A stretch of DNA of 64,000 nucleotides from Pseudomonadota bacterium (lineage in GTDB: Bacteria; Pseudomonadota; Gammaproteobacteria; Xanthomonadales; Rhodanobacteraceae): NCBI GenBank assembly GCA_021793575.1, contig JAJYSM010000001.1:3371-67370 (forward strand), in the 5' to 3' direction. The first letter of the stretch is position 1. Every line of letters starts with the position of its first letter. Made by a program: the position numbers and the translations under genes. This document shows, piece after piece, positions 23,595-46,702 of this stretch. The notes beneath the pieces were generated by a model. The model ran no database searches. It was not told the origin of the DNA and was given only the letters and a program-made list of their open reading frames with translations.

Positions 23595-23897
23595 GGCCAC
23601 CTGCCGGGTCGACCGCGCACAGCCTTGCAGGCAAGCAGGCAAGAGGCGGGCCAAGACGCACCGCGTAGCCGGACGCCATGCGCGGCCGGGCGCGCCGCAC
23701 GTTGTTGCTTTAATGGCGCAGCGCTGCCGTGACAGAGCGTGCCAAAGGCCGCACGCGGCGTGCGTTTCATGCTGCGCTGCAGTTTGCGGCAGGCGCGCCA
23801 CGGCGCGATGCTTGAGACCGTTCTGCCAGCGTCAGGCCGCGACCTTCGCGGCACAATCGCAATCCATCGCGAGCGGATGCGCTGGCAGCAAGGGAGC

Positions 23898-25853
23898 ATG
23901 CTCATGAGCCACGTCCTGTCGGCCCGACCGCCGTCGTCGCAGATCACCCGTCTGCTGCAGGCGCGCACCGGGATGACCCAGGTGGCTGCCCACGTCGCCA
24001 AGTCCTGGGATCGCTGCCTCAACCGCTACAGCATGGAGCCCGACGCCGAGCGCAACACCATCGTGCTCGATGCCGACTCGGTACGCGCGCGGCAGCAGAC
24101 CTTCGGCGAGCTGCTCGGGGTGGCCCGCGCAGAGATGGAAAACCTGTACGAGCAGATCGCCGGCTCCGGCTACGCGGTGATCCTCAGCGACGCCGATGCG
24201 GTGGTGCTCAGCGCGATCACCGACCCGGGTCTGAAGCGCGAATTTCGCGGCGCCGGGCTGTGGATCGGCGCGGTGTGGAGCGAGCAGAACGAAGGCACCA
24301 ATGGCCTCGGCACCGCAATCGCCGAGCGCATGCCGGTGACCGTGCACTGCGGCGAGCATTTCCGCCGCTACAACGTGGGGCTGTCGTGCTGCGGCGCGCC
24401 GATCCTGGATGTCGACGGCAGCGTGCTGGCGGTGCTGGACGCCTCGGCCGCCAGCTCGGCCGACACCCGGCCGGTGCAGAGCCACACCATGGCGCTGGTC
24501 AGCATGTCGGCCAACCTGATCGCGCGCTGCCATTTTCTCAGCCGCTTCAAGGATGCCTGGGTGCTGCGCTTCCACAGCCGCGCCGAATTCGTCGGCCTGC
24601 TGCACGAGGCGCTGATGGCGATCGACGGCAACGGCCGCATCCTCGCGGTCAACGAGAGCGCGGTGGTGCAGCTTGGCATGAGCACGCGAGCGCAGCTGGT
24701 CGGCCGGCTGCTGGACGATATCCTGCCGTTCGACTTCGCCACGCTGGAGCAGCGCGCGTCGAGCGAGCCGGCCTCGCTGTGGCCGATGCGCGACATCGCC
24801 TACGGCCGCCGCTTCTTTGCCAACGCGCGCGCACCGCTGGGCCACCATCACCGGGCGCTGCCCGCGCCTGCGGTCGCGCCCACGGTGGCCGCGGTGGTGC
24901 CGGCGCGCCAGCACGTCGGCAGCGATCCGCGCATGCAGCACAACCTCAACTGCGGCCGGCAGCTGTTCGGCCGGCGCGTGCCGATCCTGCTGCAGGGCGC
25001 CACCGGCACCGGCAAGGAAGTGTTCGCCAAGGCGCTGCACCGAGCCAGCAGCTGGGCCGAGCGTCCGTTCGTGGCGGTCAACTGCGCGGCGATTCCGGAG
25101 GCGCTGATCGAGAGCGAGCTGTTCGGCTACACCCGCGGCGCGTTCACCGATGCGGCGCGCGAGGGGCACGTGGGCAAGATCCGCCAGTCCAGCGGCGGCA
25201 CGCTGTTCCTGGACGAGATTGGCGACATGCCGCTGGCGCTGCAGACGCGCCTGCTGCGCGTGCTGGAGGAGCACGAGATCGTCCCGCTCGGCGGCGACAG
25301 CGCGATTCCGGTCGACCTGCACCCGATCAGCGCCACCCACCACGACCTGCTGCAGATGGTGCAGCTGGGCACCTTCCGCGAGGATCTGTATTACCGCCTC
25401 AACGGCATCACGCTGGATCTGCCCACGCTGCGCGAGCGCACCGACAAGCGCGAGCTGATCCAGACCCTGCTGGCCGAGGAAGCTTCGCAAGGGCGGCCGC
25501 CCGGGATCGATGAAGCGGCGCTGCAGCGCCTGCTGGACTATCCCTGGCCGGGCAACATCCGCCAGCTGCGCAACGTGCTGCGCACCGCCGCCGCGCTGGG
25601 CGGCGACCGCGGCTGCATCGGCCTCGCCCACCTGCCGCGCGAGATCACCGGCGAGCACCGGCATGCGGTCGTCGCCGCACCCGCGCCGGGCAGCGACGAG
25701 CCCGGGCCGCTGCGCACCGCCGAGCGCGACGCGCTGCGGCGCGAGCTGGAGCGCATGCACTGGAACATCAGCCGCACCGCCGAGCTGCTAGGCGTGAGTC
25801 GCAACACGCTGTACCGCAAGATCCGCAAGCACGAAATCGTGCTGCCCGACTGA
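23898..25853 (+). CDS. GAF-domain sigma-54-dependent activator (AcoR-like)
   Basis: GTNGLGT GAF motif, GATGTGKE Walker A, ESELFG-GAFTDA, FLDEIGD, WPGNIRQL, Fis-type HTH (NISRTAELLGVSRNTLYRK). Confidence 0.92.
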   Translation: MLMSHVLSARPPSSQITRLLQARTGMTQVAAHVAKSWDRCLNRYSMEPDAERNTIVLDADSVRARQQTFGELLGVARAEMENLYEQIAGSGYAVILSDADAVVLSAITDPGLKREFRGAGLWIGAVWSEQNEGTNGLGTAIAERMPVTVHCGEHFRRYNVGLSCCGAPILDVDGSVLAVLDASAASSADTRPVQSHTMALVSMSANLIARCHFLSRFKDAWVLRFHSRAEFVGLLHEALMAIDGNGRILAVNESAVVQLGMSTRAQLVGRLLDDILPFDFATLEQRASSEPASLWPMRDIAYGRRFFANARAPLGHHHRALPAPAVAPTVAAVVPARQHVGSDPRMQHNLNCGRQLFGRRVPILLQGATGTGKEVFAKALHRASSWAERPFVAVNCAAIPEALIESELFGYTRGAFTDAAREGHVGKIRQSSGGTLFLDEIGDMPLALQTRLLRVLEEHEIVPLGGDSAIPVDLHPISATHHDLLQMVQLGTFREDLYYRLNGITLDLPTLRERTDKRELIQTLLAEEASQGRPPGIDEAALQRLLDYPWPGNIRQLRNVLRTAAALGGDRGCIGLAHLPREITGEHRHAVVAAPAPGSDEPGPLRTAERDALRRELERMHWNISRTAELLGVSRNTLYRKIRKHEIVLPD

Positions 25854-25865
25854 ATCCGGCCCGCG

Positions 25866-28283
25866 CTAATCGGCGGTGGCGGTGGCGGCGGCGCCGAAGT
25901 CGTAGCGCAGCCCCACCAGCCAGGCGCGCGGCGCGCCTGGCGCCACAAAAAGGGTCGAGCTGCCGGGACCGCTGAGGTCGATCAGCCGGTTTGGCGTATC
26001 GAACACATTGGTGCCCAGCTGGCCGCTGATGGCGTAGCGGCGGTCGAGCGCGTTGTCGACGCGGGTGAACAGCGCCAGCCGTCGCGTGGCCTGATAGTGC
26101 ACGTCCAGCGCCAGCACCGCGTAGCCGGCGAGCGCGCCGTGGCGGTCGCGGTTGTTCTCGTCGCCCACGGCGAACTGGCGCGAACTGGCGCGCAGGTTGC
26201 CGCCGACCGACCACTGCGGGTCGAGCTGGTATTCAGCGGAAAAATTGAACAACCGGCGCGGCACGCCGGGCAGCCGGTCGCCGCGGCGCACGTGGATCAC
26301 GCCGCTGCCATCGGCGCTGGAGTTGGCGCTGCTCTGCGCGTCGAACGGGCTGCCATAGGTGGCGCTGACCAGGCTGAAGTTGGCCTGCCATTCAAGCCGG
26401 CCGAGCTTGCCGCCGAGCCCCATGTCCACGCCCTGGCGCAGCGTGCGCGGCACGTTGGCGAAATAGCCCTGGCCGCTGCCGCCGGTGTAGATGGTGAGGA
26501 TGTCGTGGCTGACCTGGCTGTAGTACGGCGCGATGTTCCAGTGCAGGTCGCCGCCGGCGAAGTTGCCGCGCAGGCCGCCGCTGAGGGTTTTGACCACCAC
26601 CGGGCGCAGCGGCGGATCGCCGGTGAAGTCGTTCGGCAGCGCGCACGGCGCGGCCGGATCGGCGCACTCGAACTCGATCGGCGTCGGCGTGCGCATGCCC
26701 TCGCCGTAGTTCAGATAGCTGCCGAACTGCGGCGTGATCGCCCACGTCACGCCCACGCTGGGATTGAAGCGGTGGAAGCTCTGCCGGCCGTTGATCTGCG
26801 GCTTCACGCCGGAGCGGTCGCGCACGGCCAGCTGGCTGTGGTTGTAGCGACCGCCGAAACTCAGATGCACGCCGTGCGGCAGCGCCAGCACATCCAGCAG
26901 GTACACGCCGTAGCTGCGATTGGAGGTGCCCGCGTAAGTGATCGGCGGCACGCCGAACGGCAGCAGACCCACGGCATCGCCGCGCTGCGCGACGCTGTAG
27001 GGAAAGTAGGCCGGCTGGCCGTACTGGCTGAACGCGCTGGCGCCGGCATCCAGGCTTACGCCGCTGGTGAACTGGTTGTCGCGCCCCCACAGGCGGCCGT
27101 CATCCACCGCCTGCAGCGAGCCGCCGTAGCCGCGGGTATGCAGATTGCCGAGCACGTTCCAGGCGGGCAGGTTGTTGAGGGTCGCCGCGGGCTGCCGCGG
27201 ATCGTAGGCCGGGCTTACTCCGGCAAAGTAGAACTGGCCGAGCGAGCCAGGATCGAACGGGCCGTTGACGGCATAGCCCAGCGGGCCGTCGGTGGCCGCG
27301 TTGTAGCTGCTGAAGCTGGCGGTGTTGCTGTTGAAGCCGCGGCTCTGCGAGATGCGCAGGTAGGCGTCTGCCTGCAGCGCCCAGCCCGCTTCGAGCTGAC
27401 GCGAGCCTTGCAGGTTGAACTGACTGAGATGGTTGATCGCGTAGTCCGGCCAGGTGTAGGCGACGGCCGGGGTGCGCATCCATGCCACCGGAATCGTCTG
27501 GGTGCCGAACAGCCGGCTGTGCGCGCCGGTGTAGCTCAGCATCACGCGGGTGTTTTCGTCCGGCCGCCAGTCGCCGCGCACGAAGCCCTGCTGCACCCGG
27601 CTCGACGCATGGTCGCGCCAGCCGCTCTCGTAGTCGCTGCTGGCGCCGGCGTAAATCCCGAAGTGCTGGCTGTGGGCGCCGAAATCCACGTCGGTCTGCA
27701 GCCGCCCCCACGAGCCGCCGGACACATCCAGTGATCCACCCGGGTCGCTGAAGCCGCTCTTGCTGGTCAGCAGCAGCGCAGCGGCCAGCGTGTTGAGGCC
27801 GTACAGCGGATCGGAGCCGGGCACCAGCTCGACGTCGCTCAGGGCGAAGTCGGGAATGAAATCCCAGTTCATCGTTTCGGCAAACGGCTCGTTCTGGCGC
27901 ACGCCGTCCATGTAGACGGAAATCCCGGACGGTGAGCCCAGCAGCGGCGACAGCGTGAAGCCGTGAAAATACAGGTTGCCCTGCCACGGATTGCCCTGCG
28001 ACTGGGTCAGGCTGATGCCCTGGAAATTCTGCTGCAGCAATTCGGTCAGCGACTGTCCGTGCAGCTGGCGGATATCGTCGGCCTGGGCGCTCTGCACGTT
28101 CAGCGGAATCTGCTGCACGGGCACGTCAAACCCCGGTAGCGGCGCCACCCCGACCACCTTCACCTCGTGCAGCTGCTGCACCGGCGGATCGGCCCGCGCC
28201 GGCCGCTGCATCGCCACGCCGAGCAGAAGCAGCAGCGCCGTGCAGGCGCGTGCGCGGCGGCGTGGGCGGAGCATCAAAGGCAT
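25866..28283 (-). CDS. TonB-dependent outer-membrane receptor
   Basis: Signal peptide, plug region SPLLGSPSGISVYMDGVRQNEPF, C-terminal NALDRRY...PGAPRAWLVGLRYDF. Confidence 0.92.
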   Translation of the reverse strand: MPLMLRPRRRARACTALLLLLGVAMQRPARADPPVQQLHEVKVVGVAPLPGFDVPVQQIPLNVQSAQADDIRQLHGQSLTELLQQNFQGISLTQSQGNPWQGNLYFHGFTLSPLLGSPSGISVYMDGVRQNEPFAETMNWDFIPDFALSDVELVPGSDPLYGLNTLAAALLLTSKSGFSDPGGSLDVSGGSWGRLQTDVDFGAHSQHFGIYAGASSDYESGWRDHASSRVQQGFVRGDWRPDENTRVMLSYTGAHSRLFGTQTIPVAWMRTPAVAYTWPDYAINHLSQFNLQGSRQLEAGWALQADAYLRISQSRGFNSNTASFSSYNAATDGPLGYAVNGPFDPGSLGQFYFAGVSPAYDPRQPAATLNNLPAWNVLGNLHTRGYGGSLQAVDDGRLWGRDNQFTSGVSLDAGASAFSQYGQPAYFPYSVAQRGDAVGLLPFGVPPITYAGTSNRSYGVYLLDVLALPHGVHLSFGGRYNHSQLAVRDRSGVKPQINGRQSFHRFNPSVGVTWAITPQFGSYLNYGEGMRTPTPIEFECADPAAPCALPNDFTGDPPLRPVVVKTLSGGLRGNFAGGDLHWNIAPYYSQVSHDILTIYTGGSGQGYFANVPRTLRQGVDMGLGGKLGRLEWQANFSLVSATYGSPFDAQSSANSSADGSGVIHVRRGDRLPGVPRRLFNFSAEYQLDPQWSVGGNLRASSRQFAVGDENNRDRHGALAGYAVLALDVHYQATRRLALFTRVDNALDRRYAISGQLGTNVFDTPNRLIDLSGPGSSTLFVAPGAPRAWLVGLRYDFGAAATATAD

Positions 28284-28374
28284 CGGGAGACGGCTTCCTG
28301 GGCGGGTGCGAGGGTCGCACCATTGTTCGGCGGGCGGCCGCACAAAGTCACGACACACGCAGACGGCATCGCGG

Positions 28375-28417
28375 CGGCGCTGCCGCCGCTTCACGCCGGA
28401 GCGGGGCGGCAGCGCCG
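28375..28417 (-). terminator. 13-bp-stem hairpin between gfa and the TonB receptor (terminator or stabiliser)
   Basis: CGGCGCTGCCGCC / GGCGGCAGCGCCG inverted repeat; no clear U-tract. Confidence 0.4.
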
Positions 28418-28428
28418 GCGATCTGCGC

Positions 28429-29004
28429 TCAGGCGTGCAGCGTGCCCTTGGCCTTGGCCACGTGGGTGGCGATGGCGTCCATCAGCGGCGGCGACAGGCA
28501 GTCGTACGGCGGCAGCCCGAGCTCGTTGAGGCGGGCGCGCACCGCGTCCATCCGCTGCGGGTCGTAGCCCGCCTCGATGATCGAGGAGACGAACGCGGCG
28601 AACACCGGCGCCGACCAGCCCTCTTCGGACGACAGCTCGGTGTGCACGAAGTCGAGCCCGTGGAACGGATGATTGGTGTCCTCGATGCGACCGATCATGT
28701 GCGTGCCACACACGGTGCAGGCGTGGCGCTGGATCGCCGCCTTCGGGTCGACCACCGCCAGCTTGTCGCCGTTCTCCAGCACGCTGACCTTGTCGCGCGC
28801 GACCACCGCGACCTGCGAAAAGGTGGCGCCGGCGGGCTTCCAGCACTTGCTGCAGCCGCAGACGTGATTGTGCGCGGTCTGCGCGCCCACCTTCACCTTG
28901 ACCGGCTTGTCCCTGCACTTGCAACTCAGCGTGCCGCCGCCGAAGTGGTCCTTGCCCGGCTTGACGCCGTGATCGACCGCGGGATGAATCGAAACGGTAG
29001 CCAT
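28429..29004 (-). CDS. gfa: S-(hydroxymethyl)glutathione synthase (formaldehyde-activating enzyme)
   Basis: [27 protein letters not shown]-xx-[17 protein letters not shown]; GGAGG RBS. Confidence 0.96.
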
Positions 29005-29099
29005 GGTTTACCTCCAACTGGTGAGTGACGGCGGCGGGGTCGGCAGCTGCGGCTGCCGGGGTTCTTGCGGGTGCGTGCGGCCCGATGGCGGGGAAGTCC

Positions 29100-29318
29100 T
29101 CATGGCGTCATCGCCACGCCCAGGGTGCGCTCGAGCATCTGCCTGGCACCCGCCAGCCAGGTTTCGTCAGTGTCGCCGCGCAGGTCGCCCGGCGTGAACT
29201 GGATCAACTCGACATCGGCAACCAGCGACGACGGCCGCGCGACCTTCGTCTGCCGCACGGATGACGCCGATGGCGCCGCCAGCAGACAGACAAGCAAGGC
29301 GGTGGCCGCGCGCGTCAT
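29100..29318 (-). CDS. Small hypothetical protein with signal-peptide-like N-terminus
   Basis: ATG 3 nt after the frmA stop; MTRAATALLVCLLAAPSASS; no family recognised. Confidence 0.35.
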   Translation of the reverse strand: MTRAATALLVCLLAAPSASSVRQTKVARPSSLVADVELIQFTPGDLRGDTDETWLAGARQMLERTLGVAMTP

Positions 29319-29321
29319 GGC

Positions 29322-31305
<1,984 letters not shown>

Positions 31306-31346
31306 TCGTGTGTGCTCTGTAGGGGGTGTTCGTCTGAGGGATGACG

Positions 31347-32195
31347 CTACAAATCGTTCATCGTGCTACCGGCGCCCTCGCCGGTCATCTCAACGCCATG
31401 CTTCTTCAGGATCGCCTGCAGCTGCGGACGGTTGGTTTTGATCAGCGCGTCCAGGCGCGTCTTCAACGTCTTGTCGTCCTTGCGTACCGCCATCGACATT
31501 GGGAACGAGTACATCTCCGGCGAACCGGTGGCGCGAGAGTTCGGCAGCGTCACCGTGGTCAGATCGGGGAAGGCCTTCAGGTAGGCGCCAATCGATGGCT
31601 GCCAGGTAATCATCACGTCGACGGTCCCGTTCTCGACAGCCTCCAGCACGCTGCGTGGCGAGGTACCGCTCTTGCCGCCGACGTTGTACGGCTTGGCTGT
31701 GGTGACCATGCCGCGCAGCTGCAGCCCGGTCTCGACCGGCGTCTCCGACTCGAAGCCGACCTTCAGCTTGCGCAGCTCTGGCGAATTCAGGCTCTTGAGG
31801 TCGTAACCCTTGTCCTTCTTGAACACGAACACGTACGAGGACACGTAGTACGGGTCCGTCGTCAGCTCCTCCTGGTTGCCGTAAGGCATGTTCATCACCA
31901 CGTCGCAGTGGCCGCTGTCGAGGTTGCGCGACAGGTATTCGGAAAAGCCGCCGTGGCCGCGCGAATCGGCCCAGGTGTAGTCGAGCGTGGCGCCGAGCTT
32001 GCTCGCCACGTAGCGGGCCACGGCGTTCTCGAAGCCCTTGCCGTCGCGATCGGAGTACGGCAGGTAGTTGGGATCCGCGCACACCTTGAGCGTGCCGTGC
32101 GTCGCTGCGGCCGCCGCACGCGCCGGCGGCAGCGACGCGAAGGCGCACACCAGTGCGCCGGCTGCAAACATCATCGTGGGGTTGATGGATTTCAT
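31347..32195 (-). CDS. xoxJ: XoxJ/MxaJ-family periplasmic binding protein
   Basis: LKVCADPNYLPYS...GFEN, TDPYYVSSYVFV, FPMSMAVRKDD; directly downstream of the dehydrogenase. Confidence 0.88.
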   Translation of the reverse strand: MKSINPTMMFAAGALVCAFASLPPARAAAAATHGTLKVCADPNYLPYSDRDGKGFENAVARYVASKLGATLDYTWADSRGHGGFSEYLSRNLDSGHCDVVMNMPYGNQEELTTDPYYVSSYVFVFKKDKGYDLKSLNSPELRKLKVGFESETPVETGLQLRGMVTTAKPYNVGGKSGTSPRSVLEAVENGTVDVMITWQPSIGAYLKAFPDLTTVTLPNSRATGSPEMYSFPMSMAVRKDDKTLKTRLDALIKTNRPQLQAILKKHGVEMTGEGAGSTMNDL

Positions 32196-32234
32196 GGAGC
32201 TCTCCGGGCGGGTCCCGTGGTCGTGGACAATGCA

Positions 32235-32263
32235 ACGCGATGCCCCGCTGCAGGGCATCGCGT
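32235..32263 (-). terminator. Perfect 11-bp hairpin immediately after xoxF
   Basis: ACGCGATGCCC-cgctgca-GGGCATCGCGT; no U-tract, so more likely an mRNA stabiliser or attenuator. Confidence 0.5.
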
Positions 32264-32276
32264 CGCCTGCTGCAGC

Positions 32277-34076
32277 TCAGTTGAGGGCAAATACCATCAA
32301 CGTGCCACCGAGGTTGGTGTATTCGCCGAGAGTAGCGGCGGCACCGACCCCACCGAGGCCTTCGGTGGCCTTGGTCAGCCCGTTGGACAGGCCGATCCCG
32401 GCCCAGCCACCAATGCCACTGAGTACCGCCACATACTGCTTGCCAGCATACGTGTAAGTCATCGGGTTGCCGATGATTCCCGACGGGCACTTGAACTGCC
32501 ACAGCACCTTGCCGGTCTTCAGATCGACCGCACGGAACCAGCCGGTCAGTGTGCCATCGAAGGCCACGCCACCCTTGGTGGTCAGCGCGCCGCCCCAAGT
32601 CTGGAAACGATCATTGATGGCCCACTTGGTCTTGCCGGTCATCGGGTCGAAGGCGATGAAGCGCCCGCCGACGTCACCGTGGTTGTATGGGTACATGTTC
32701 ACCAGCGCACCGACGTACGGGAAGCCCGCCTTGTACTTCACGTTGAAGGCCTGGTAGTCCATGCATAAATGGTTGGTCGGCACAATGAACAGGCCGCTGG
32801 CCGGGTCATAGGCTGCCGGCCCCTCGTTCTTCGAGCCCTGCGAGGACGGACAGATATCCTTCACGTTGAAGCCTTCCTTGGTCATCTTGTCGGCATTGAC
32901 CACCGGACGGCCGGTCTTCATGTCAATAGAGCTGGCCCAGTTGACGGTGGAGTCGAACTTGTGCGCCGCCAGCAGCTTGCCATCGGCGCGGTTCCACACG
33001 TAGGCAAAGCCGTTGCGGTCGAAGTGGGTGATCGTCGGAATCGACTTGCCGTCGACCATGGTGTCGGTGAGGATGCTCTCGTTGATGCCGTCATAGTCCC
33101 ACTCGTCGTGCGGCGTCATCTGGAACACCCACTTGGCCTCGCCGGTGTCCGGATTGCGGGCGATGATCGACATCGAGTACTTGTTGTCGCCCGGGCGCTG
33201 GGTCGGGTTCCAGGTACCGGGATTGCCGGTGCCGTAATACAGCAGGTTGAGCTTGGGATCGTAGGTGTACCAGCCCCAGGTGGTACCACCGCCGAGTTTC
33301 CACTGGTCGCCCTGCCAGGATTTCAGGCTCGAGTTCTTGCCGACCGGCTTGCCGGTGGCGCCGTCGATCGTCGTCGCCGGGTTGAACATGATTTGCGCAT
33401 CCGGGCCGGTGCTGTAGGCGCGCCACAGCTGCTTGCCGGTGTTGATGTCGTCGGCGGTGATATACCCCCGCACACCGAATTCGCCGCCGGAGACCCCGGT
33501 GATCACCTTGTCCTTGACGACGAGGGGCGCCATGGTCTGAGTTGCACCCATTTCCGGATCGGCGTTCTTCGCCTTCCATTTGACCTTGCCGGTCGCAGCA
33601 TCCAGCGCGTACAGATAACCGTCCAGTGCGTTGGCGAAGATCATGCCGTTGCCATAGGCGACGCCACGGTTGACGACGTCACAGCAAGCTACGGTAGGCG
33701 CGAATTTGTCTTGGTCAGGCGTGAAGTTCCAGATCATGCGGCCGGGATCTTTCAAAGAGACCGCGTAGACATGGTTCGGAAACGAACTCTCGAAATACAT
33801 CATGTCGCCGATGATCAGAGGCTGGCCCTCGTGACCACGCAATGAGCCGGTCGACATGGTCCATGCCACGTGCAGGTTCTTCACGTTGGCGGTCGTGATC
33901 TGATCCAGCGCGCTGTAGCGCTGCGCAGTGTAGTTGCCACTGGGCATGACCCATTGGTTGGGATCCTTGGCCATCTGCAGCAACGAATCATTCGCCAGTA
34001 CGGCGACTGCAGGCAGACTGAGGCCGAGACCCAGGATGATTGACCATCTGCGGGAACGTGCGGGTTTGTTTTGCAT
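32277..34076 (-). CDS. xoxF: Lanthanide-type PQQ methanol dehydrogenase XoxF
   Basis: 599 aa with signal peptide; RGHEG, vicinal ACCDVVNRG, GGEFGVRG (Glu ligand), GTGNPG (Asn ligand), TPHDEWDYDGINE (extra Asp of Ln-binding enzymes); no mxaI follows. Confidence 0.9.
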   Translation of the reverse strand: MQNKPARSRRWSIILGLGLSLPAVAVLANDSLLQMAKDPNQWVMPSGNYTAQRYSALDQITTANVKNLHVAWTMSTGSLRGHEGQPLIIGDMMYFESSFPNHVYAVSLKDPGRMIWNFTPDQDKFAPTVACCDVVNRGVAYGNGMIFANALDGYLYALDAATGKVKWKAKNADPEMGATQTMAPLVVKDKVITGVSGGEFGVRGYITADDINTGKQLWRAYSTGPDAQIMFNPATTIDGATGKPVGKNSSLKSWQGDQWKLGGGTTWGWYTYDPKLNLLYYGTGNPGTWNPTQRPGDNKYSMSIIARNPDTGEAKWVFQMTPHDEWDYDGINESILTDTMVDGKSIPTITHFDRNGFAYVWNRADGKLLAAHKFDSTVNWASSIDMKTGRPVVNADKMTKEGFNVKDICPSSQGSKNEGPAAYDPASGLFIVPTNHLCMDYQAFNVKYKAGFPYVGALVNMYPYNHGDVGGRFIAFDPMTGKTKWAINDRFQTWGGALTTKGGVAFDGTLTGWFRAVDLKTGKVLWQFKCPSGIIGNPMTYTYAGKQYVAVLSGIGGWAGIGLSNGLTKATEGLGGVGAAATLGEYTNLGGTLMVFALN

Positions 34077-34157
34077 GTTGTACCCCCCTTTGCCGTGGAA
34101 CATGCCGAATGAGCGGCCGCGGGAGATGCCCGGGACCGTAATAGGTGACAGTTCCGA

Positions 34158-34173
34158 AGCAGTCTGCGTGCCA
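34158..34173 (-). promoter_or_regulatory. Sigma-54 (-24/-12) promoter of the xoxF operon
   Basis: Minus strand TGGCAC-GCAGA-CTGCT, exact GG-N10-GC, about 80 bp upstream of the xoxF ATG. Confidence 0.75.
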
Positions 34174-34428
34174 TCCGGGAAAACTTGAACAAAACCATGA
34201 AAATCAGATGGCTGTGAAACTTGAACCCGCGCGTTCTCCGGCAGATGGCGCAACCGGTGTGCTTATAACGAAACAGTCATTGCTGCACATTTGACTCACC
34301 CCGGTCGCCATATGGCGCCAGGTCAAACGTCTTGATCGCGCATCCAGGCAGACTCATCTGTCATGCAGACCACACGCAATCCATCGGAGGGCTCCTCCCG
34401 GCTCTCTCCATGCTCCAGAGGATGTCCC

Positions 34429-35379
34429 ATGAAAAATCGCCGCCTCGGCCAATCACCGCTCGAAGTCGCCCCGCTCGTCTTAGGCGGCAACGTATTCGGC
34501 TGGAGCGCCGACGAGCCGCGCTCGTTCGAACTGCTCGACGCCTTCGTCGACGCCGGCTGCAACCTGATCGACACCGCCGACGTCTACTCGGCGTGGGCGC
34601 CGGGCAACCGCGGCGGCGAGTCGGAGGCGATCATCGGCCGCTGGCTCCGCCACAGCGGCAAGCGCGAGCAGGTGCTGCTGGCCACCAAGGTCGGCAAATG
34701 GAGCGAGCATCCCGGGCTGTCGCCGGTGAATATCCGGCAGGCGGTGGAGGCCTCGCTGCAGCGCCTGCAGACCGATCATATCGACCTGTACCAGGCGCAC
34801 GAGGACGACGCCAGCGTGCCGCTGGCCGAGACGCTGGGCGCATTCGGACGGCTGATCGAGGAAGGCAAGGTGCGCGCGATCGGCGCCTCCAACTACGGCG
34901 CCGACCGCCTGGCCGAGGCGCTGGCCGTGTCGAAGCAGCACGGCCTGCCGCGCTACGAAAGCCTGCAGCCGGAATACAACCTGGTCAGCCGCGCCGGCTA
35001 CGAAGCGGAGCTGGAGCCGCTGATCCGCCGCGAGCAGATCGGCGTGCTCAGCTACTACGGGTTGGCCAGCGGCTTTCTCAGCGGCAAGTACCGCAGCGCG
35101 GCCGACCTGGCGCAAAGCAGCGCCCGCAGCGGGGCGGTGAAGAAGTACCTGAATCCGCGCGGCCTGCAGGTGCTGGCTGCGCTGGACGCGGTCGCCGCCA
35201 GCCAGCGCGCCACCCCGGCGCAGGTGGCGCTGGCGTGGCTGATGGCGCGGCCCGGGCTCACCGCGCCGATCGCCAGCGCCACCAGCGTGGCGCAGCTGCG
35301 CGAGCTGATGGGGGCGACTGCGCTGACGCTGGATGCCGACGCCATCGCCACGCTGGATCGGGCCAGCGCCGAGGCCTGA
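34429..35379 (+). CDS. Aldo/keto reductase
   Basis: LGGNVFGW, IDTADVYS, ATKVG, DLYQAH, IGASN, LQPEYNL, PIASATS. Confidence 0.93.
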   Translation: MKNRRLGQSPLEVAPLVLGGNVFGWSADEPRSFELLDAFVDAGCNLIDTADVYSAWAPGNRGGESEAIIGRWLRHSGKREQVLLATKVGKWSEHPGLSPVNIRQAVEASLQRLQTDHIDLYQAHEDDASVPLAETLGAFGRLIEEGKVRAIGASNYGADRLAEALAVSKQHGLPRYESLQPEYNLVSRAGYEAELEPLIRREQIGVLSYYGLASGFLSGKYRSAADLAQSSARSGAVKKYLNPRGLQVLAALDAVAASQRATPAQVALAWLMARPGLTAPIASATSVAQLRELMGATALTLDADAIATLDRASAEA

Positions 35380-36468
35380 TCAACGCGGCGTCGAGGCGGC
35401 CGCCGCAGGCGCGCTGCTGGCTGCCGGCGCCGGGTCGGCATCCTGCTCCTGCGGCGATTCCACCGCGTAGCCCTGCGCCTTGAGCTGCGCCAGCCAGCCG
35501 TCCGGCGACAGCAGCTGGTCGATCGGCAGCAGCGCGAAGGTCTGCGCGTTGTGCGCCAACGCCGTGCGCGCGGCGGTCAGCCAGACCTCGCGCAGCCGCG
35601 CCGGCAGGTCGTCCAGCCCCAGCTTGTGCGCGAAACCGGCGCTGGTCAGCGCGGCCACGCAGGTATCGCGGCGATCGCTGTCGGGCAGCTGCTGCAGGGT
35701 CTGCAGATCGCCGCTGGCCCACGCGTTGGCGCGCGCCGCCATCGCCGGCAGGTCGTGCTCGATGCTGTCCAGCGTGTGGCTGAAGCAGGCGGTGTCGTCC
35801 AGGCCCGAAGTGGTGAACGCCTTGATCGCCGCGCGCGGCTGCTCGATCACGGTCCGGTAGACCACCGGCGTGGGCGTGATGCCGTGCTGCTTCGCCAGCG
35901 CGTCCACCGTCGAGGCGATGCCGCCCGAGTTGTTCAGGCCGTTGGCCTTGAGCGCCTTGTTGTAGAGCGCCTGCGCGGCGAAGATCGGCCGCCAGCGCTC
36001 GATCCCCCGATCATTGCCGATGTACTGCTGCTTGAGCACCAGCCAGCGCACGTACTGCGCCGGTGGCAGCAGCTGCTGCAGCGTCTTGCCGTCCGCGTTC
36101 TTGCGCGCGCTGTACGCCGCCGGCAGCAGGAACAGCTTGCCGAAGAAACCCACGTCCAGCTTCATCTTGAGCGACGGCGCCAGCAGCACCTGCTGCGAGC
36201 CGGCGATCACGTCCGCCACCTGCTGCGATTGCCAGGTCATGCTGCGCGGCAGCGGGGAAAGCGTGCCGAGTATCCACAGCACGTGATCGCCGCGGGACAC
36301 CTTCCACAGGCCCGGCCCCGGCTGCACGCCGCTGACCACCACCGGCTTGAGGTTGGCCACGTTCGACGGCGTCAGCGGCGGCGGCGCGCTGGCCGCGGTG
36401 GACTGGGCGAACGCGGGCATCAGGCCGCCCAGGGCAAACAGCAAGACGGCGGTGCGGCACAGTCGCAT
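35380..36468 (-). CDS. TraB/GumN family protein
   Basis: Signal peptide, PGLWKVSRGDHVLWILGT, C-terminal LLSPDGWLAQLKAQGYAVE. Confidence 0.85.
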   Translation of the reverse strand: MRLCRTAVLLFALGGLMPAFAQSTAASAPPPLTPSNVANLKPVVVSGVQPGPGLWKVSRGDHVLWILGTLSPLPRSMTWQSQQVADVIAGSQQVLLAPSLKMKLDVGFFGKLFLLPAAYSARKNADGKTLQQLLPPAQYVRWLVLKQQYIGNDRGIERWRPIFAAQALYNKALKANGLNNSGGIASTVDALAKQHGITPTPVVYRTVIEQPRAAIKAFTTSGLDDTACFSHTLDSIEHDLPAMAARANAWASGDLQTLQQLPDSDRRDTCVAALTSAGFAHKLGLDDLPARLREVWLTAARTALAHNAQTFALLPIDQLLSPDGWLAQLKAQGYAVESPQEQDADPAPAASSAPAAAASTPR

Positions 36469-36538
36469 CGGCGAACACTCCTTCGGCATGGGCCGTCATT
36501 GTGTCAGGCGGAAACTGACTGGCACGCTGCCGGCCGTT

Positions 36539-38275
36539 TCATGGCGGCAGCCGCGCGCTCTCGGGATAGGCTGGCACGTCGACGTGCTCGCCCGCGCGCA
36601 GTCGCGCCTGCAGCGCGCACCACCAGGCCGGGTCGAAGATTTCCGGGTGCGCGCTGACCAGCGCCGCGCGCAGCGGCGCCGGCACGCCGAGGAAGTTCAC
36701 GAACAGTTCGGGAAACACATCCTGCGGCGCGGCGTACAGCCAGTCGTCCAGCGGCCGCGTGGCGTCCTCGTCGCGCACCGGCGGCACCGCGCGGAAGCGG
36801 CACTCGCCGAGCAGGCACAGCTCGTCGTAGTCGTAGAACACCGCGCGGCCGTTGCCGGAGATGCCGAAGTTCTTCAGCAGCAGATCGCCCGGAAAGATGT
36901 TGCTGGCGGCCAGGTCCTTGATCGCCTGGCCGTAGTCGCGCATGGCGCGGCACGCCTCGGTCGGGTTCACCTCGCGCACGTACAGATCCAGCGGGCGCAG
37001 CCGGCGCTCCACGTAGCAGTGCCCGATCACCAGCTCGTCGCCGTCCACGCTCGCCGTGTCGGCGCATTCGGCCAGCAGCTCCGCCAGCAGGTCCGCGTCG
37101 ACCTGATGCAGCGGAAAGCGCAGCTGGCGAAACTCCTGCGTGTCGACCAGCCGGCCGGCGCGATCGTGGCGGAACACCAGCCGGTATTTGGCCTCCACCT
37201 GACTTCGCGTGGTGTCCTTCGGCCACGCAAAGCGGTCGCGGATCAGTTTGAACACCACCGGCAGGTCGCGCAGGGTGAACACCGCCATCACCATGCCGCG
37301 CTGGCCGTCGGCGCGCAGCAGGCGCTCGTGCGGGTGGATGGCCAGATGGCCGAACACGCGCCGGTAACGCTCGGTTTTGCCCTGCTTGGCGCGGCCGAGC
37401 ACGCTGTACAGCTCCTCCAGCGGCTTGTGCGGCAGCAACGCGCGCACGAACGCCACCACCGCGCCGACGTTGGCGATGTCCGCATGGAAATAGCTGCGCG
37501 CGTAGCCGAACAGGATCGACACCTGCTCGCGCGCGGTAAGCAGCGCATCCACCCGCACGCCGTCGTCGGCGTGCAGCAGCGCGATCACCAGCGGATGGCG
37601 GCGCTGGCCGCCGCGCACGCGCCCGACCAGGTAGGCGCGCTGCTCGCGGTAGAACACCGTCTGCAGCACGTCGAGGCTCTCGATCGCGGCCAGCCCCAGC
37701 GCGGCCAGCCGCGCGTGCAGCGCAGCGGCCAGCCGGGCCGCGTCGCCGGCGACATCGGCATAACCGAAATCCGCGTCGGCCAACAGCTGCGCGCAGGCGT
37801 CCGCCAGCGCGTCGCCCACCCGGTAGCGCCGATGCGGCGCGGCGTCGCTGGGCTCGGTATACGGCTCGCGGTCGAGCGCCACGAATTCGATCTCGGGCGC
37901 CACCCCGCGGGTGTGGAAGTGGCGCCGCGAGAGGGAGCTGAACCAGGTCTTGTACAGCTCGCGATCGGCCAGCTCGGCCACCCGCCGCTCGTACTCCCGG
38001 CGCATCGCCGCCCATAGCGCGCGCGAGCGCAGGCGGTCGTCGAGCAGTGCGTCCAGCCGGCCCTGCGTCTCGCGGATGCAGATGTCGTAGAGGTCGATGC
38101 GCGCATGCGCATCCACGGCGGCGGCGCGCCAGTCGCGCCGCTCGAAGCGGCGCCGCGCGCGCCGGGTGATGTCGGCAAAGCGTGCGTTGTAGTCGGCAAA
38201 GGCATCCACCAACAGTGCCGCCGCGGCACATGCCTGCGGATCGGCGGCTGACGCGGTGCTGACGACGGACTTCAT
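36539..38275 (-). CDS. aceK: Isocitrate dehydrogenase kinase/phosphatase
   Basis: FYREQRAYLVGR, GKTERYR, GMVMAVF, FKLIRDRF, NIFPGDLLLKNFG, VFYDYDEL. Confidence 0.95.
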   Translation of the reverse strand: MKSVVSTASAADPQACAAAALLVDAFADYNARFADITRRARRRFERRDWRAAAVDAHARIDLYDICIRETQGRLDALLDDRLRSRALWAAMRREYERRVAELADRELYKTWFSSLSRRHFHTRGVAPEIEFVALDREPYTEPSDAAPHRRYRVGDALADACAQLLADADFGYADVAGDAARLAAALHARLAALGLAAIESLDVLQTVFYREQRAYLVGRVRGGQRRHPLVIALLHADDGVRVDALLTAREQVSILFGYARSYFHADIANVGAVVAFVRALLPHKPLEELYSVLGRAKQGKTERYRRVFGHLAIHPHERLLRADGQRGMVMAVFTLRDLPVVFKLIRDRFAWPKDTTRSQVEAKYRLVFRHDRAGRLVDTQEFRQLRFPLHQVDADLLAELLAECADTASVDGDELVIGHCYVERRLRPLDLYVREVNPTEACRAMRDYGQAIKDLAASNIFPGDLLLKNFGISGNGRAVFYDYDELCLLGECRFRAVPPVRDEDATRPLDDWLYAAPQDVFPELFVNFLGVPAPLRAALVSAHPEIFDPAWWCALQARLRAGEHVDVPAYPESARLPP

Positions 38276-41357: not shown

Positions 41358-41594
41358 CGGCGATCCATTGGTCGGAAAGTGCCCAACCTTAGCAACTCCG
41401 CGCCAGCGGCACGACCCGACCCATGGCAGGCGGCATAAGTTCGAGTAGGCCGGATGGCGGTTTATCCGGCGGTGCTGCACTACCCGCCAACGGAGCAGCA
41501 GCGCCACGCAGCAACCTGCGGATACCCGGCACATTGCCTGCAGGCACCCTGCTGACAGCCTCCGCCAGGCTAAAGGCGCACCACGATGCGTCTC

Positions 41595-41623
41595 TTGCCC
41601 GCATGTACTTAAATAGGTACTAT
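41595..41623 (+). promoter_or_regulatory. Sigma-70 promoter with overlapping GTAC-N8-GTAC operator for the RelE/HTH TA pair
   Basis: TTGCCC-17 nt-TACTAT ending 6 nt before GTG 41630; GTACTTAAATAGGTAC imperfect palindrome at 41605-41620. Confidence 0.55.
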
Positions 41624-41629
41624 CGCGGC

Positions 41630-41977
41630 GTGCCAACTTCTCCTCTTCTCGAAGTTCGCTTCTACGCCACGGATGCAGGCCGCGAGCCGGTTCGCGACTG
41701 GCTGAAGTCCCTGATGCCTGACGCGCGCAAGGCGATCGGCGAAGACATCAAGACCATACAGTTCGGCTGGCCCTTGGGTATGCCATTGGTGCGCAAGATG
41801 GAACCGGGATTGTGGGAGGTGCGCAGCACGCTCGACACGGGGATTGCCCGTGTGCTGTTCACAACGGCCGGCCCGGTCATGGTGCTCCTGCACGGCTTCA
41901 TCAAGAAGTCCGACAAGACACCCAAGGATGACCTGAAGCTGGCTCTGCGTCGCGCGAAGGAGGTTCATCATGGCTAA
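41630..41977 (+). CDS. RelE/ParE-superfamily toxin (Gp49/DUF891, HigB-like)
   Basis: FYATDAGREPVRDWL, QFGWPLGMPLVRKM, LWEVRS, VLLHGFIKKSDKTP. Confidence 0.88.
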   Translation: MPTSPLLEVRFYATDAGREPVRDWLKSLMPDARKAIGEDIKTIQFGWPLGMPLVRKMEPGLWEVRSTLDTGIARVLFTTAGPVMVLLHGFIKKSDKTPKDDLKLALRRAKEVHHG

Positions 41978-42263
41978 GCACAATGCTCACATCGGCAGCA
42001 CGCTGGACGATGTTCTCGCCGAGGACGGCGTACTCGAAGAAGTATCGACGCGTGCGATCAAACGCGTGATTGCCTGGCAGTTGCAGGAAGCCATGAGGGC
42101 TCAGGGCCTCACCAAGACGGCGATGGCCCGGCGCATGCACACCAGCCGCTCGATGCTCGACCGGCTACTCAGCGAGACCGACACCGGCCTGACCCTCGAC
42201 ACACTCAGCCGTGCAGCCCAGGCGCTGGGCTACCGGGTGAAAGTGGAACTGGCGGCAGCGTAG
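41970..42263 (+). CDS. XRE-HTH antitoxin (HigA-like)
   Basis: HIGSTLDDVL...KRVIAWQL...GLTKTAMARRMHTSRSMLDRLL...TLDTL; overlaps the toxin by 8 nt. Confidence 0.88.
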   Translation: MAKHNAHIGSTLDDVLAEDGVLEEVSTRAIKRVIAWQLQEAMRAQGLTKTAMARRMHTSRSMLDRLLSETDTGLTLDTLSRAAQALGYRVKVELAAA

Positions 42264-42383
42264 GGGCGACGGACGCTCTTGGTCTTCTTTTCGTGAGCGC
42301 GAGCCGCTCAAACACAGTCGACCCCGTCTCACCGCCGCACAGGGGCCCCGGGTAGAGCGGCGCGCATCCTGCGTGCACTTCGG

Positions 42384-42420
42384 TCACCAACCATGCGGTG
42401 AGAGCGTGCAATCCCAATAT
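42384..42420. repeat. 37-bp direct repeat, copy 1
   Basis: TCACCAACCATGCGGTGAGAGCGTGCAATCCCAATAT; 35/37 identical to 43957-43993. Confidence 0.9.
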
Positions 42421-42613
42421 TGCAAACCGCCAGCTGGCTACCCACTCCGGACATCAAACCGGACGAGCTTCGCCAGCAAAACTGACCACGCGCGCCAGGA
42501 CGCTGACCAGCGTAGTCGACTGCCTCGATTGGGGAGGGTCAGTTTGACCCGGGAGCTGTCACTCACAGCATGGCGGGCAGGTTGCATCGGGATCGTTCAG
42601 ACATCAGACTGAG

Positions 42614-42631
42614 CTACAGACAAAACTGTAG
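42614..42631. promoter_or_regulatory. Perfect 6-6-6 inverted repeat upstream of the Xre antitoxin (putative operator)
   Basis: CTACAG-ACAAAA-CTGTAG, 12 bp before ATG 42644. Confidence 0.55.
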
Positions 42632-42643
42632 GTGGGCTGTGTG

Positions 42644-43150
42644 ATGAGCAATCTGAAACAGACGAAAACAATGCGTAAGGCGGGCCAGAAGGCCTCGTTT
42701 GCAAAGGCCGATCACTCGGTGGCGAACATGGCGCTCGCACAGTCACGCAAGGGCGTCGAGCGGGTGAAGATCGCCCACCATAGCGGCGTCAACGCCCTGT
42801 TGGCGAAATACGCCGACAAGAGGACGGGGAACGTCGTCGTGGACCGGCTGATTGACGGTACCGGATTCACCAAGAAGAACCTGGCGGGCACGCTTGGCAT
42901 CAGTATGGATGCGATGTACCGCCCGGATCGGGTCAACTCGCCCACCACGCAGGTGCGAATGCGCGAGATGCTTGAAATTCTCGGGCGCATCACCGACTGG
43001 GCGGGGGGCGAAGTGCAGGCGATGGCGTGGTACCGAGGCCAACCGATCCCGGCCTTCGGAGGTCGTACCGCCGAGTCCCTGGTCAAGTCCAATCAAGCGG
43101 GGCCATTGCGCGACTATCTGGACCACATGGCCATGGGTGGCTTTGCTTGA
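42644..43150 (+). CDS. Xre/MbcA/ParS-type antitoxin (DUF2384-like)
   Basis: HTH-like core then WAGGEVQAMAWYRGQPIPAFGGRTAESLV...YLDHMAMGGFA. Confidence 0.85.
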   Translation: MSNLKQTKTMRKAGQKASFAKADHSVANMALAQSRKGVERVKIAHHSGVNALLAKYADKRTGNVVVDRLIDGTGFTKKNLAGTLGISMDAMYRPDRVNSPTTQVRMREMLEILGRITDWAGGEVQAMAWYRGQPIPAFGGRTAESLVKSNQAGPLRDYLDHMAMGGFA

Positions 43151-43677
43151 GGTTTGCGGGAAGGGCCTACCGGGGCCATGACCCGCAGTGGGCGTTCGCA
43201 CCGCTGTCGGGTGATGGGGCAGCGGTCTACGGCGGGCGCTTCAATCCAAAAGGTGTTGCCGCGCTGTACCTCGCGCTGTCCCCGACGGGGGCGATCAACG
43301 AGGTGTGCCAGGGTCTTGCTTCCCGCATTGCCCCGATGACCTTGGTCGAATACGAAGTGGATTGCACTGACATCCACGACTTGACGGACGCCGCGGCTCG
43401 CGCTGCGCTGGGGATTGCGAAATCGGACATGGCCTGCAATTGGGGTGATGAGGCCTTGATCGCTGGCAAGACGCCGGCATCGTGGGCGATCGCAACGAGG
43501 CTCATCGCGGGCGGCGCGGCGGGCATCATCGTGCCGAGCTATGCCCAGGAGGCAGCTGCCGATCACCGGAATCTCGTGCTGTGGAAGCGGGGGAACCGGC
43601 GCCCGCATCGTGTCCGGGCCTACGATCCCACCGGCAAGCTTCCCGCGAACCAACTGTCCTGGCCGAAATCTCGGTAG
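43147..43677 (+). CDS. RES-domain toxin (NAD+ phosphorylase family)
   Basis: TTG overlapping the antitoxin TGA; AYRGH (R), GGRFNPKG, AINE (E), IIVPS (S), NLVLW. Confidence 0.87.
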   Translation: MRFAGRAYRGHDPQWAFAPLSGDGAAVYGGRFNPKGVAALYLALSPTGAINEVCQGLASRIAPMTLVEYEVDCTDIHDLTDAAARAALGIAKSDMACNWGDEALIAGKTPASWAIATRLIAGGAAGIIVPSYAQEAAADHRNLVLWKRGNRRPHRVRAYDPTGKLPANQLSWPKSR

Positions 43678-43760
43678 AGCGCGTGTGGATCATGAGCGTT
43701 CCACCGCGTCTCGAGGCGGCAGCAGTTTCGCGACGCGGTGGGTCAGGGGGCGACTCGGCT

Positions 43761-43940
43761 CTGATGGTGCTGACCAACGACAGTCGCACCGGGCTGGCGC
43801 TGGCCACGCTGGCGCTGGTGCACTCGACCCTCGGCGGCGCCGTGCTGCTGGCCGGCACCGGCATGTTCGGCGGCATCGCGCAGATCGCCATCGTCAGCTG
43901 GATCCAGCGCCGGGTGGCGCCGGCGATGATGGGCCGCAGC
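43761..43940 (+). pseudogene. Internal fragment of an MFS transporter gene
   Basis: GLALATLALVHSTLGGAVLLAGTGMFGGIAQIAIVSWIQRRVAPAMMGRS: two TM helices plus a Q-x(n)-GR loop, truncated at both ends. Confidence 0.55.
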
Positions 43941-43956
43941 AACGCACCCTTCACAA

Positions 43957-43993
43957 TCACCAACAATGCGGTGATAGCGTGCAATCCCAATAT
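43957..43993. repeat. 37-bp direct repeat, copy 2 (coincides with the 3' end of the hypothetical gene)
   Basis: TCACCAACAATGCGGTGATAGCGTGCAATCCCAATAT. Confidence 0.9.
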
Positions 43994-44331
43994 CGGACGG
44001 AACAGAATTTACCGACGAAATCATAGAGCTTGCCGCGGCATGTTAGTGACGCAACCTCGTCTGGCGTGGCAGGCCGCAAACCGAGAAATTCGTGGAAGGC
44101 GATGTCATCGATGGTCGGACCATCACTAAGTTCGTACAGCTCGTTGTAGAGCGTCGGCACGCCGATTTGTTCGGCCACGAAATACTCGTAGCTATCGCAG
44201 GCTCCGCGGATCAACAACTCCAGCTTTTCACTGCACTCGCCGCGCAACAACAGCCGACCGGGCGTGCTGACGTTGTCGGCATCGCCGTATCGATAGACGA
44301 AAACGCTGTGCCGCTTTTCAGCCTTCGCCAT
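43957..44331 (-). CDS. Hypothetical protein (resembles uncharacterised mobile-element proteins)
   Basis: MAKAEKRHSVFVYRYGDADN...YFVAEQIGVPTLY...DDIAFHEF; start overlaps the end of the upstream gene. Confidence 0.65.
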   Translation of the reverse strand: MAKAEKRHSVFVYRYGDADNVSTPGRLLLRGECSEKLELLIRGACDSYEYFVAEQIGVPTLYNELYELSDGPTIDDIAFHEFLGLRPATPDEVASLTCRGKLYDFVGKFCSVRYWDCTLSPHCW

Positions 44332-44611: not shown

Positions 44612-44620
44612 CTCTTTTCC

Positions 44621-46666: not shown

Positions 46667-46685
46667 TCTCGCTATGGGATAATAT

Positions 46686-46702
46686 GCGGCCAGTCTGTCC
46701 GC
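46686..46702. promoter_or_regulatory. 17-bp near-palindrome upstream of the HTH-MTase (putative autoregulatory site)
   Basis: Minus strand GCGGACAGACTGGCCGC directly before TATTAT (46684-46679), about 20 bp from the ATG. Confidence 0.5.

Follow-up and report, generated by a model that had tools for sequence, protein, structure and literature searches.

Some soil proteomes have XoxF-type methanol dehydrogenases among their most abundant proteins, and surveys bin these enzymes into the clades XoxF1 to XoxF5 by primers or small reference trees. Here we describe a xoxF gene and its surroundings in a 64,000-nucleotide stretch of contig JAJYSM010000001.1 (assembly GCA_021793575.1, Rhodanobacteraceae), referred to below as the window. 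The closest described enzymes are those of XoxF5 (Methylorubrum extorquens XoxF1, 6OC5 and 6OC6; Methylotuvimicrobium buryatense, 6DAM). The window protein resembles them in fold, ligands, vicinal Cys pair, lack of a small subunit and XoxJ/XoxG-type partners, and they are its best solved matches (56-57% identity). It differs from them in falling outside their clade, in having a two-haem cytochrome and a putative sigma-54 promoter, and in a host without synthesis of the cofactor pyrroloquinoline quinone (PQQ). The gene order xoxF-xoxJ-cytochrome also departs from xoxF-xoxG-xoxJ, the order in M. extorquens.

The other clades share part of this picture. XoxF4 enzymes (Methylotenera mobilis XoxF4-1 and XoxF4-2; PMC6028718) are likewise of the lanthanide type, carry the D-Y-D and YYGTGNP motifs and are about 57% identical to XoxF5. 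However, the XoxF4 references used here have an insertion of about 32 amino acids, missing in the window protein, at the position of its residues 232-256, and they group with MxaF in our trees. XoxF3 enzymes (the Methylocella, Mesorhizobium and Methylosinus type) also have D-Y-D, are followed by xoxJ and a cytochrome and occur in overlapping hosts (Acidobacteriota, Proteobacteria), but they form a basal branch and are linked to coxB, ctaD and ctaG. The verrucomicrobial XoxF2/XoxF1-type enzymes (4MAE; Methylacidimicrobium AP8, 7O6Z) agree with the window protein in ligand positions, in the ND-L... start of the mature protein and in a similar GWF[KR]AVD region. They are 52-55% identical to it and read P-[WF]-D-x-W-D-Y-D where it has P-H-D-E-W-D-Y-D.

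Judged from sequence, we read the window gene as encoding a periplasmic, homo-oligomeric XoxF-type methanol dehydrogenase that would use PQQ and a light lanthanide, has no small subunit, belongs to a distinct lineage sister to XoxF5/XoxF4/MxaF and probably serves energy metabolism with scavenged PQQ. We give this joint reading a probability of about 0.75. It leaves the basic picture of XoxF unchanged. What goes beyond the routine is the lineage outside the five clades, a fused two-haem acceptor with sigma-54/AcoR-type control, and the likely dependence on imported PQQ; the acceptor and the sigma-54/AcoR-type control set this case apart from the model XoxF5 systems in ways that can be tested.

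The XoxF protein and its metal ligands

32277..34076, minus strand: xoxF, a 599-amino-acid periplasmic PQQ methanol dehydrogenase with the lanthanide ligand set, assigned by family model, ligand alignment and phylogeny

The open reading frame (ORF) runs from 34076 to 32277, with ATG at 34076 and a GGGGGG ribosome-binding site just 5′ of it. A longer TTG-initiated frame (to 34253) appears in the ORF list and was judged unnecessary. The frame is intact and has a strong G+C third-position bias like other ORFs called in the window. The product carries a signal peptide, MQNKPARSRRWSIILGLGLSLPAVAVLA, ending ...AVAVLA/NDS, and the mature part begins NDSLLQ.

The catalytic and lanthanide motif MTPHDEWDYDGINES holds D327-Y-D329, in which Asp327 is the catalytic and Asp329 the lanthanide-specific residue. 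Glu199 lies within SGGEFG and Asn285 within GTGNPGTWN. In a gap-free alignment to 4MAE (Methylacidiphilum fumariolicum SolV XoxF), E199, N285, D327 and D329 correspond to E172, N256, D299 and D301, and MxaF shows Ala in place of Asp329. The same alignment identifies R354 as the conserved Arg. The vicinal Cys pair is C131-C132, within TVACCDVVNRG. These residues bear out the initial annotation, which had pointed, with exact coordinates, to a D-Y-D where MxaF has D-Y-A, to the Glu and Asn ligands and to the Cys pair. It had also noted that a small-subunit gene was lacking; none occurs in the cluster, and MxaI (Pfam MDH, PF02315) had no match in the whole 99.8%-complete host genome, with two positive-control genomes scoring 137-140 bits next to mxaF.

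The protein scores 698.7 bits over residues 26-557 with TIGR03075, the methanol/ethanol PQQ dehydrogenase model (cut-off 480). Among solved structures it is most similar to 6OC5 (759 bits), 6DAM (731) and 4MAE (682), followed by MxaF large subunits (about 615-650) and then PedH (about 390). W-D-[YF]-D-G is present in 120 of its 120 nearest database homologues, so the D-x-D motif is not a chance match. The extra Asp is needed for lanthanide binding in XoxF1, XoxF2, XoxF4 and XoxF5 (PMC10875860). Family model, ligands, phylogeny, xoxJ, an XoxG-like cytochrome and the lack of MxaI all support the XoxF-type, lanthanide-type assignment made in the initial annotation. By these sequence criteria the gene product is confirmed as a genuine XoxF-type methanol dehydrogenase, correctly identified and of an ordinary, already common kind.

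Phylogenetic position

References for clade assignment were collected from several sources: solved structures, primer-verified XoxF3 and inferred Methylophilaceae XoxF4. For XoxF5, XoxF2, XoxF1-type, MxaF, PedH and ADH-IIB we used PDB entries 6OC5, 6DAM, 4MAE, 7O6Z, 4TQO, 9ISM, 6ZCW and 1KV9, and we added 80 named genomic homologues from a species-genome collection. As XoxF3 we accepted genes on plasmids of Mesorhizobium ciceri and Methylocella tundrae, because they hold both Taubert xoxF3 primer motifs (GE[ST][IM]TMA ... FYGTM[DE]), have a predicted product of 992 bp (about 1000 bp expected; forward primer 0 mismatches, reverse 2-3) and lie in xoxF-xoxJ-cytochrome-cox/ctaG clusters with coxB, ctaD and ctaG. 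The primers are those of Taubert et al. (2015) as listed in the supplement of PMC7065363, and the gene context is that reported for XoxF3 (PMC10875860).

The XoxF4 references come from four Burkholderiales genomes. We take these to be Methylophilaceae because their MxaF scores 1150 bits against that of Methylophilus W3A1, because they encode MxaI and two hexulose-phosphate synthases, and because their several XoxF copies have FPNNVYA and YYGTGNP spaced for 659 bp (the xoxF4 amplicon is 660 bp) and fitting identities (about 71-93% within the group, about 52% with MxaF), in line with Huang et al. (2018; PMC6028718). The printed xoxF4 forward primer does not translate cleanly, and the xoxF4 comparison used motif and spacing alone. 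Enzymes from small-genome Burkholderiales, also considered as XoxF4 references, proved to be XoxF5-like.

Two side observations concern these references. The inferred Methylophilaceae genomes (loci L115-L126; G089, G305, G034, G342, G266) carry MxaFI and three to five XoxF4 copies, and two of them add an XoxF3-type gene that matches the xoxF3 primers, in agreement with Huang et al. (2018). Azospirillum plasmid enzymes (L086, L092; KTPFDEWD[YF]DG) attach to XoxF5, at its base in two trees and inside it in a third. In no case do they join the primer-verified XoxF3 references, though one soil study reported that cloned xoxF3 amplicons clustered with Azospirillum xoxF3 genes.

The initial annotation had left the clade undetermined by eye. 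In a maximum likelihood (ML) tree of 80 sequences (LG+G4; ultrafast bootstrap and Shimodaira-Hasegawa-like approximate likelihood ratio supports), the window protein falls in a 22-member clade (100/99) and in none of XoxF1-5 as represented. The clade includes a Lysobacterales metagenome-assembled genome (MAG; 84% identity), Dyella sp. EPa41 and a Dyella MAG (76%), gammaproteobacterial and Burkholderiales MAGs, Binataceae (Binatota), Terriglobia/Bryobacteraceae (Acidobacteriota) and Eremiobacterota/Vulcanimicrobiota. It is sister (100/97-98) to a group made up of XoxF5 (100/99) and MxaF plus XoxF4 (97/88). Below that group are XoxF2 and XoxF1-type enzymes, with XoxF3 at the base of the radiation. 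A second tree of 48 sequences under LG+C20+F+G4 has the same topology.

The whole XoxF/MxaF radiation, including the window protein, is parted by a 100/100 branch from PedH, ADH-IIB and the PedH-like enzyme of the same host. Placement among the non-methanol PQQ dehydrogenases such as PedH/ExaF, which would have overturned the earlier assignment, is thus not what the trees show.

The individual clades were compared in turn. The window protein lies outside the 100/99 XoxF5 clade, with MxaF and XoxF4 in between, and outside the 100/100 MxaF clade, having D-Y-D and not D-Y-A. 7O6Z and 4MAE form a clade separate from it. The FPNNVYA...YYGTGNP spacing is 562 bp in the window gene vs 659 bp in the XoxF4 references, and the xoxF3 primers have 5 and 5 mismatches. 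For the published xoxF5 primers the mismatches are 0 and 2 and the product is 359 bp, which means that the gene would probably pass as xoxF5 in amplicon surveys. On average the lineage is 57.1% identical to XoxF5, 54% to XoxF1/2, 49% to XoxF4, 49% to MxaF and 45% to XoxF3. In approximately unbiased (AU) tests, forcing the lineage together with XoxF3 (p = 0.0001) or XoxF4 (p = 0.016) was rejected, and with XoxF1/2 (p = 0.045) marginally so.

XoxF3 was our first assumption, as the nearest non-gammaproteobacterial relatives are from Acidobacteriota, whose XoxF enzymes have been called XoxF3 (PMC10875860). It was ruled out by the primer-verified XoxF3 references and by gene context: a scan of 6 kb around the acidobacterial xoxF members of the lineage found no cox genes. 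A group "XoxF6" has been named once (PMC7646524) and could be the window lineage. No relevant work came up in a literature search for xoxF in combination with Rhodanobacteraceae, Rhodanobacter or Dyella. The trees place the window XoxF in a distinct, well-supported lineage outside XoxF1-5, which may yet be the sister of XoxF5.

Gene cluster and regulation

On the minus strand xoxF is followed by xoxJ, the cytochrome gene, adhC, gfa and a TonB receptor gene, and a gene for a putative activator is convergent with them:

34158..34173, minus strand: sigma-54 (-24/-12) promoter-like site TGGCACGCAGACTGCT, 82 nucleotides upstream of the xoxF start codon
31347..32258, minus strand: xoxJ, periplasmic binding-protein-like accessory protein; probable start 32195 (MKSINP...)
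30532..31305, minus strand: two-haem c-type cytochrome, 257 amino acids, presumed XoxF electron acceptor
29322..30518, minus strand: adhC/flhA, S-(hydroxymethyl)glutathione dehydrogenase; true start probably about 30431
28429..29004, minus strand: gfa, glutathione-dependent formaldehyde-activating enzyme
25866..28394, minus strand: TonB-dependent outer-membrane receptor with plug and barrel domains
23739..25853, plus strand: AcoR-like sigma-54 enhancer-binding protein with N-terminal sensory region, AAA+ sigma-54 domain and Fis HTH

The entire cluster is found again, in the same arrangement, in the Lysobacterales MAG, in two Dyella genomes and in another gammaproteobacterial MAG. The xoxJ product scores 194.9 bits with TIGR03871 (below the cut-off of 212) and 135 bits with TIGR03870 (MoxJ), and its best solved match is XoxJ 6ONP (107 bits), followed by MxaJ. 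xoxJ stands beside xoxF through most of the lineage (45-80% identity).

The cytochrome has two CXXCH motifs, CFSCH in the N-terminal and CFRCH in the C-terminal part, and two Pfam cytochrome c domains joined by a Gly/Ala/Ser linker. Residues 34-113 are c551/c552-like (c552 structure 2D0S, 84 bits) and residues 141-245 are XoxG/PedF-like (XoxG 6ONQ, 39 bits, E = 5e-9; cytochrome domain of the quinohaemoprotein alcohol dehydrogenase 1YIQ, 48 bits). The two-domain protein adjoins xoxF in most of the lineage, with examples from Rhodanobacteraceae, Acidobacteriota, Binataceae and Burkholderiales.

The adhC product scores 725.8 bits with TIGR02818 (cut-off 544) and has counterparts at the same position in loci L006-L009 (78-88% identity), where gfa is syntenic as well (Pfam GFA PF04828, 40 bits vs cut-off 24.3). 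The TonB receptor reaches only 63 bits on the PqqU model and so is no PqqU-type PQQ importer, and no relative was found for it in the PDB at E <= 1e-5. Its position is taken by a 69% identical orthologue in the Lysobacterales MAG and by a different receptor (31-33%) in Dyella. As the host genome shows no other receptor of the PqqU-like or LutH type apart from the PqqU homologue described below, this protein is the leading candidate for an importer of lanthanides (as chelates).

No site other than TGGCACGCAGACTGCT in the 64-kb window fits TGGCAC-N5-YTGCW (0.2 expected), and no sigma-70 consensus promoter was found in 25500-34500. A near-identical sigma-54-like site, TGGCACGGCTTCTGCT, precedes a second PQQ-dehydrogenase operon of the host, on contig C64, and rpoN is on contig C25. 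The AcoR-like protein (Pfam Sigma54_activat, 206.9 bits, plus HTH_8) shares 37% identity along its entire length with the activator next to that second operon, and its homologues (43-57%) adjoin xoxF in L009, L022, L023 and L026. We infer that TGGCACGCAGACTGCT functions as a promoter, with the AcoR-like protein as the presumed activator of the xox operon.

Several neighbouring genes were also noted. An aldo-keto reductase gene (34363-35379, plus strand), oriented divergently to xoxF, keeps its place in the Lysobacterales MAG, and further upstream of xoxF are genes for a TraB/GumN-family protein (35380-36489) and the isocitrate dehydrogenase kinase/phosphatase AceK (36539-38275). The region 41423-46720 is a probable mobile/defence patch with genes for a Gp49/HigB-like protein (41423-41977), a RES-domain toxin-like protein (43027-43677) and a C-5 cytosine DNA methylase fused to an HNH nuclease domain (44621-46720).

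PQQ supply, host metabolism and alternative readings

The draft host assembly (3.2 Mb, 123 contigs) encodes only two members of the methanol/ethanol family, the window XoxF and an enzyme on C64, and no second MxaF-type gene was found in it. The C64 enzyme belongs to a second lanthanide-type PQQ dehydrogenase operon (C64:17205-26185, outside the window). It also has D-Y-D (YTPNDTWDYDGTNE) and is closest to PedH (416 bits). The operon further holds the acetaldehyde dehydrogenase ExaC (951 bits) and a XoxJ/PedG-like binding protein fused to a c-type cytochrome, with a sigma-54-like promoter at about C64:24115 and a divergent AcoR-like sigma-54 activator. Its TonB receptor matches the PqqU model over the full length (648 bits), is 40% identical to E. 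coli PqqU and, of the PQQ-binding residues listed in PMC12124388, keeps K274, R304, R365, R536, Q84, Q308, N477 and Y481, with Y99F and Q310L changed.

The initial annotation missed the absence of PQQ biosynthesis genes. No pqqC was found in the host genome (342 bits in two control genomes), and tblastn with PqqB, PqqC, PqqD and PqqE of a control genome found nothing there. pqqC, the only one of these genes searched for in the relatives, was also absent from two congeners with an orthologue (G415, G429), from the Lysobacterales MAG (G003) and from Dyella EPa41 (G004). Without pqqBCDE the host cannot make PQQ, and the enzyme must be loaded with imported PQQ, most likely through the PqqU-type receptor. 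The host and related xox carriers thus look like PQQ scavengers. Such scavenging is documented as common, and PqqU without PQQ synthesis genes is the majority pattern among PqqU carriers (PMC12124388). As in E. coli (PqqU/YncD; 6V81, 9C4O), a PqqU homologue with the key residues accompanies the lack of PQQ synthesis. Unlike the E. coli case, the dependent enzymes are two lanthanide-type alcohol dehydrogenases, and the importer is encoded in the PedH-like operon and not beside xoxF. The host, which combines a pair of lanthanide-type quinoproteins with a PqqU importer and lacks PQQ synthesis, is a clear example that links lanthanide biochemistry with cofactor cross-feeding.

FghA is encoded elsewhere in the genome (451 bits), which completes the glutathione route to formate. 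Neither hexulose-phosphate synthase of the ribulose monophosphate (RuMP) pathway nor RuBisCO was found in the genome, with positive controls. Since these RuMP and Calvin-cycle markers are lacking, methanol is most likely an extra energy source and not growth carbon.

In the scheme we propose from these sequence data, the AcoR-like activator would switch on the sigma-54 promoter of the xox operon, and XoxF in the periplasm would bind PQQ and a light lanthanide through Glu199, Asn285, Asp327 (the catalytic base) and Asp329. PQQ would come from other organisms via the PqqU-type transporter, and the cluster TonB receptor may import the lanthanide. The enzyme would oxidize methanol and probably other small alcohols or formaldehyde, with electrons presumably passing to the XoxG-like C-terminal haem domain, on to the fused c551-like domain and then to a terminal oxidase. 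In the cytoplasm, Gfa would join formaldehyde to glutathione, and AdhC and then FghA would take it to formate. The enzyme thus most likely serves the dissimilatory oxidation of methanol, using scavenged PQQ.

A number of points weigh against this reading. In AU tests the lineage could be placed with XoxF5 (p = 0.096) or with MxaF (p = 0.139), so both sister positions stand and a "sixth lineage" can be read as a deep XoxF5 branch. The XoxF4 references are Methylophilaceae by inference, and the XoxF1 comparison rests on one reference (7O6Z), with Candidatus Methylomirabilis XoxF1, proteobacterial/NC10 XoxF1 and the published "XoxF6" outside the trees. The predicted lanthanide dependence follows from the D-x-D rule, which was shown experimentally only for other clades. 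Residue 506 (codon at 32559-32561) is Asp (FDGT) at a site that is a nearly invariant Tyr (FYGT) in XoxF/MxaF and Ser, Thr or Gln in other PQQ alcohol dehydrogenases. The absence of the pqq genes is strong, not absolute, as it comes from a 123-contig draft. No second PqqU-like or LutH-like receptor was found in the host genome, and no lanmodulin by a crude EF-hand scan, which is a weak test. The search for assimilation routes covered the RuMP and Calvin-cycle markers, which leaves assimilation through the serine cycle possible.

The alternative that survives best is a deep-branching XoxF5 enzyme, with the separate lineage an artefact of reference sampling or of where MxaF and XoxF4 attach. It agrees with the AU result, with the fit of the xoxF5 primers and with the best-scoring solved structures, but both ML models put MxaF and XoxF4 in between (100/98-99). 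The 57.1% mean identity to XoxF5 equals the XoxF4-XoxF5 distance (57.3%) and is below the range within XoxF5 (mean 71%, minimum 59.7%). Compared with XoxJ of XoxF5 loci, that of the lineage shows only about 31-33% identity, and no two-haem cytochrome turned up at those loci. On balance we consider this alternative unlikely.

We prefer a distinct lineage. A stronger form of this view makes it the sixth major lineage of XoxF, with a wide distribution among soil Acidobacteriota, Binatota, Eremiobacterota and some Proteobacteria, its own XoxJ, a fused two-haem acceptor and no characterized member, and functioning in the host only via PQQ cross-feeding. We advance this whole statement tentatively, at somewhat short of even odds. 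If it holds, lanthanide-dependent methanol oxidation by non-methylotrophic soil heterotrophs would be a community-dependent trait. The case in any event shows a well-supported XoxF lineage that the five named bins leave uncovered, and it occurs in several abundant, poorly cultured soil phyla. Its presence in culturable Dyella strains as well offers a practical route to characterization.

It is improbable that the real substrates are other alcohols or aldehydes (ethanol, formaldehyde), or that the enzyme serves detoxification, as in ExaF/PedH-like enzymes. Characterized XoxF enzymes do have broad substrate ranges (PMC6028718), the lineage has no assayed member, and the host is without the RuMP and Calvin-cycle markers. 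However, the protein branches within the XoxF/MxaF radiation and well away from PedH/ExaA (100/100), a separate PedH-like enzyme with ExaC is already present for ethanol, and xoxF is linked to the formaldehyde-specific Gfa and to AdhC, as methanol oxidation requires.

A silent or decaying acquisition, yielding an inactive apo-enzyme for want of PQQ synthesis, is very improbable. The missing pqqBCDE, the presence of xoxF in just 3 of the 37 genomes of the genus and the Tyr replaced by Asp506 would fit decay, but the frame is intact with the usual third-position bias and all ligands are kept. Lysobacterales and Dyella genomes, likewise without pqqC, have conserved all eight parts of the cluster, and the PqqU importer with its binding residues offers a source of the cofactor. 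Asp506 is shared with P0002, a 91%-identical database relative found on 9 contigs, so it is not a sequencing error.

That the protein is a calcium enzyme despite D-x-D, as the XoxF1-MxaI complex of Candidatus Methylomirabilis oxyfera is reported to be with Ca only (in work cited by PMC6028718), is hardly credible given the genome without MxaI, the full ligand set and the need for the extra Asp in the other clades.

An orthologue of the window xoxF (88%) occurs in 2 of the 36 other genomes of the host genus, and the remaining genomes have no homologue or only 45-50% relatives, which makes xoxF an accessory trait in the host group. The closest database proteins (up to 91%) are metagenomic, and the named ones are from Dyella and Rhodanobacteraceae. 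The spread of relatives over several phyla is consistent with horizontal transfer.

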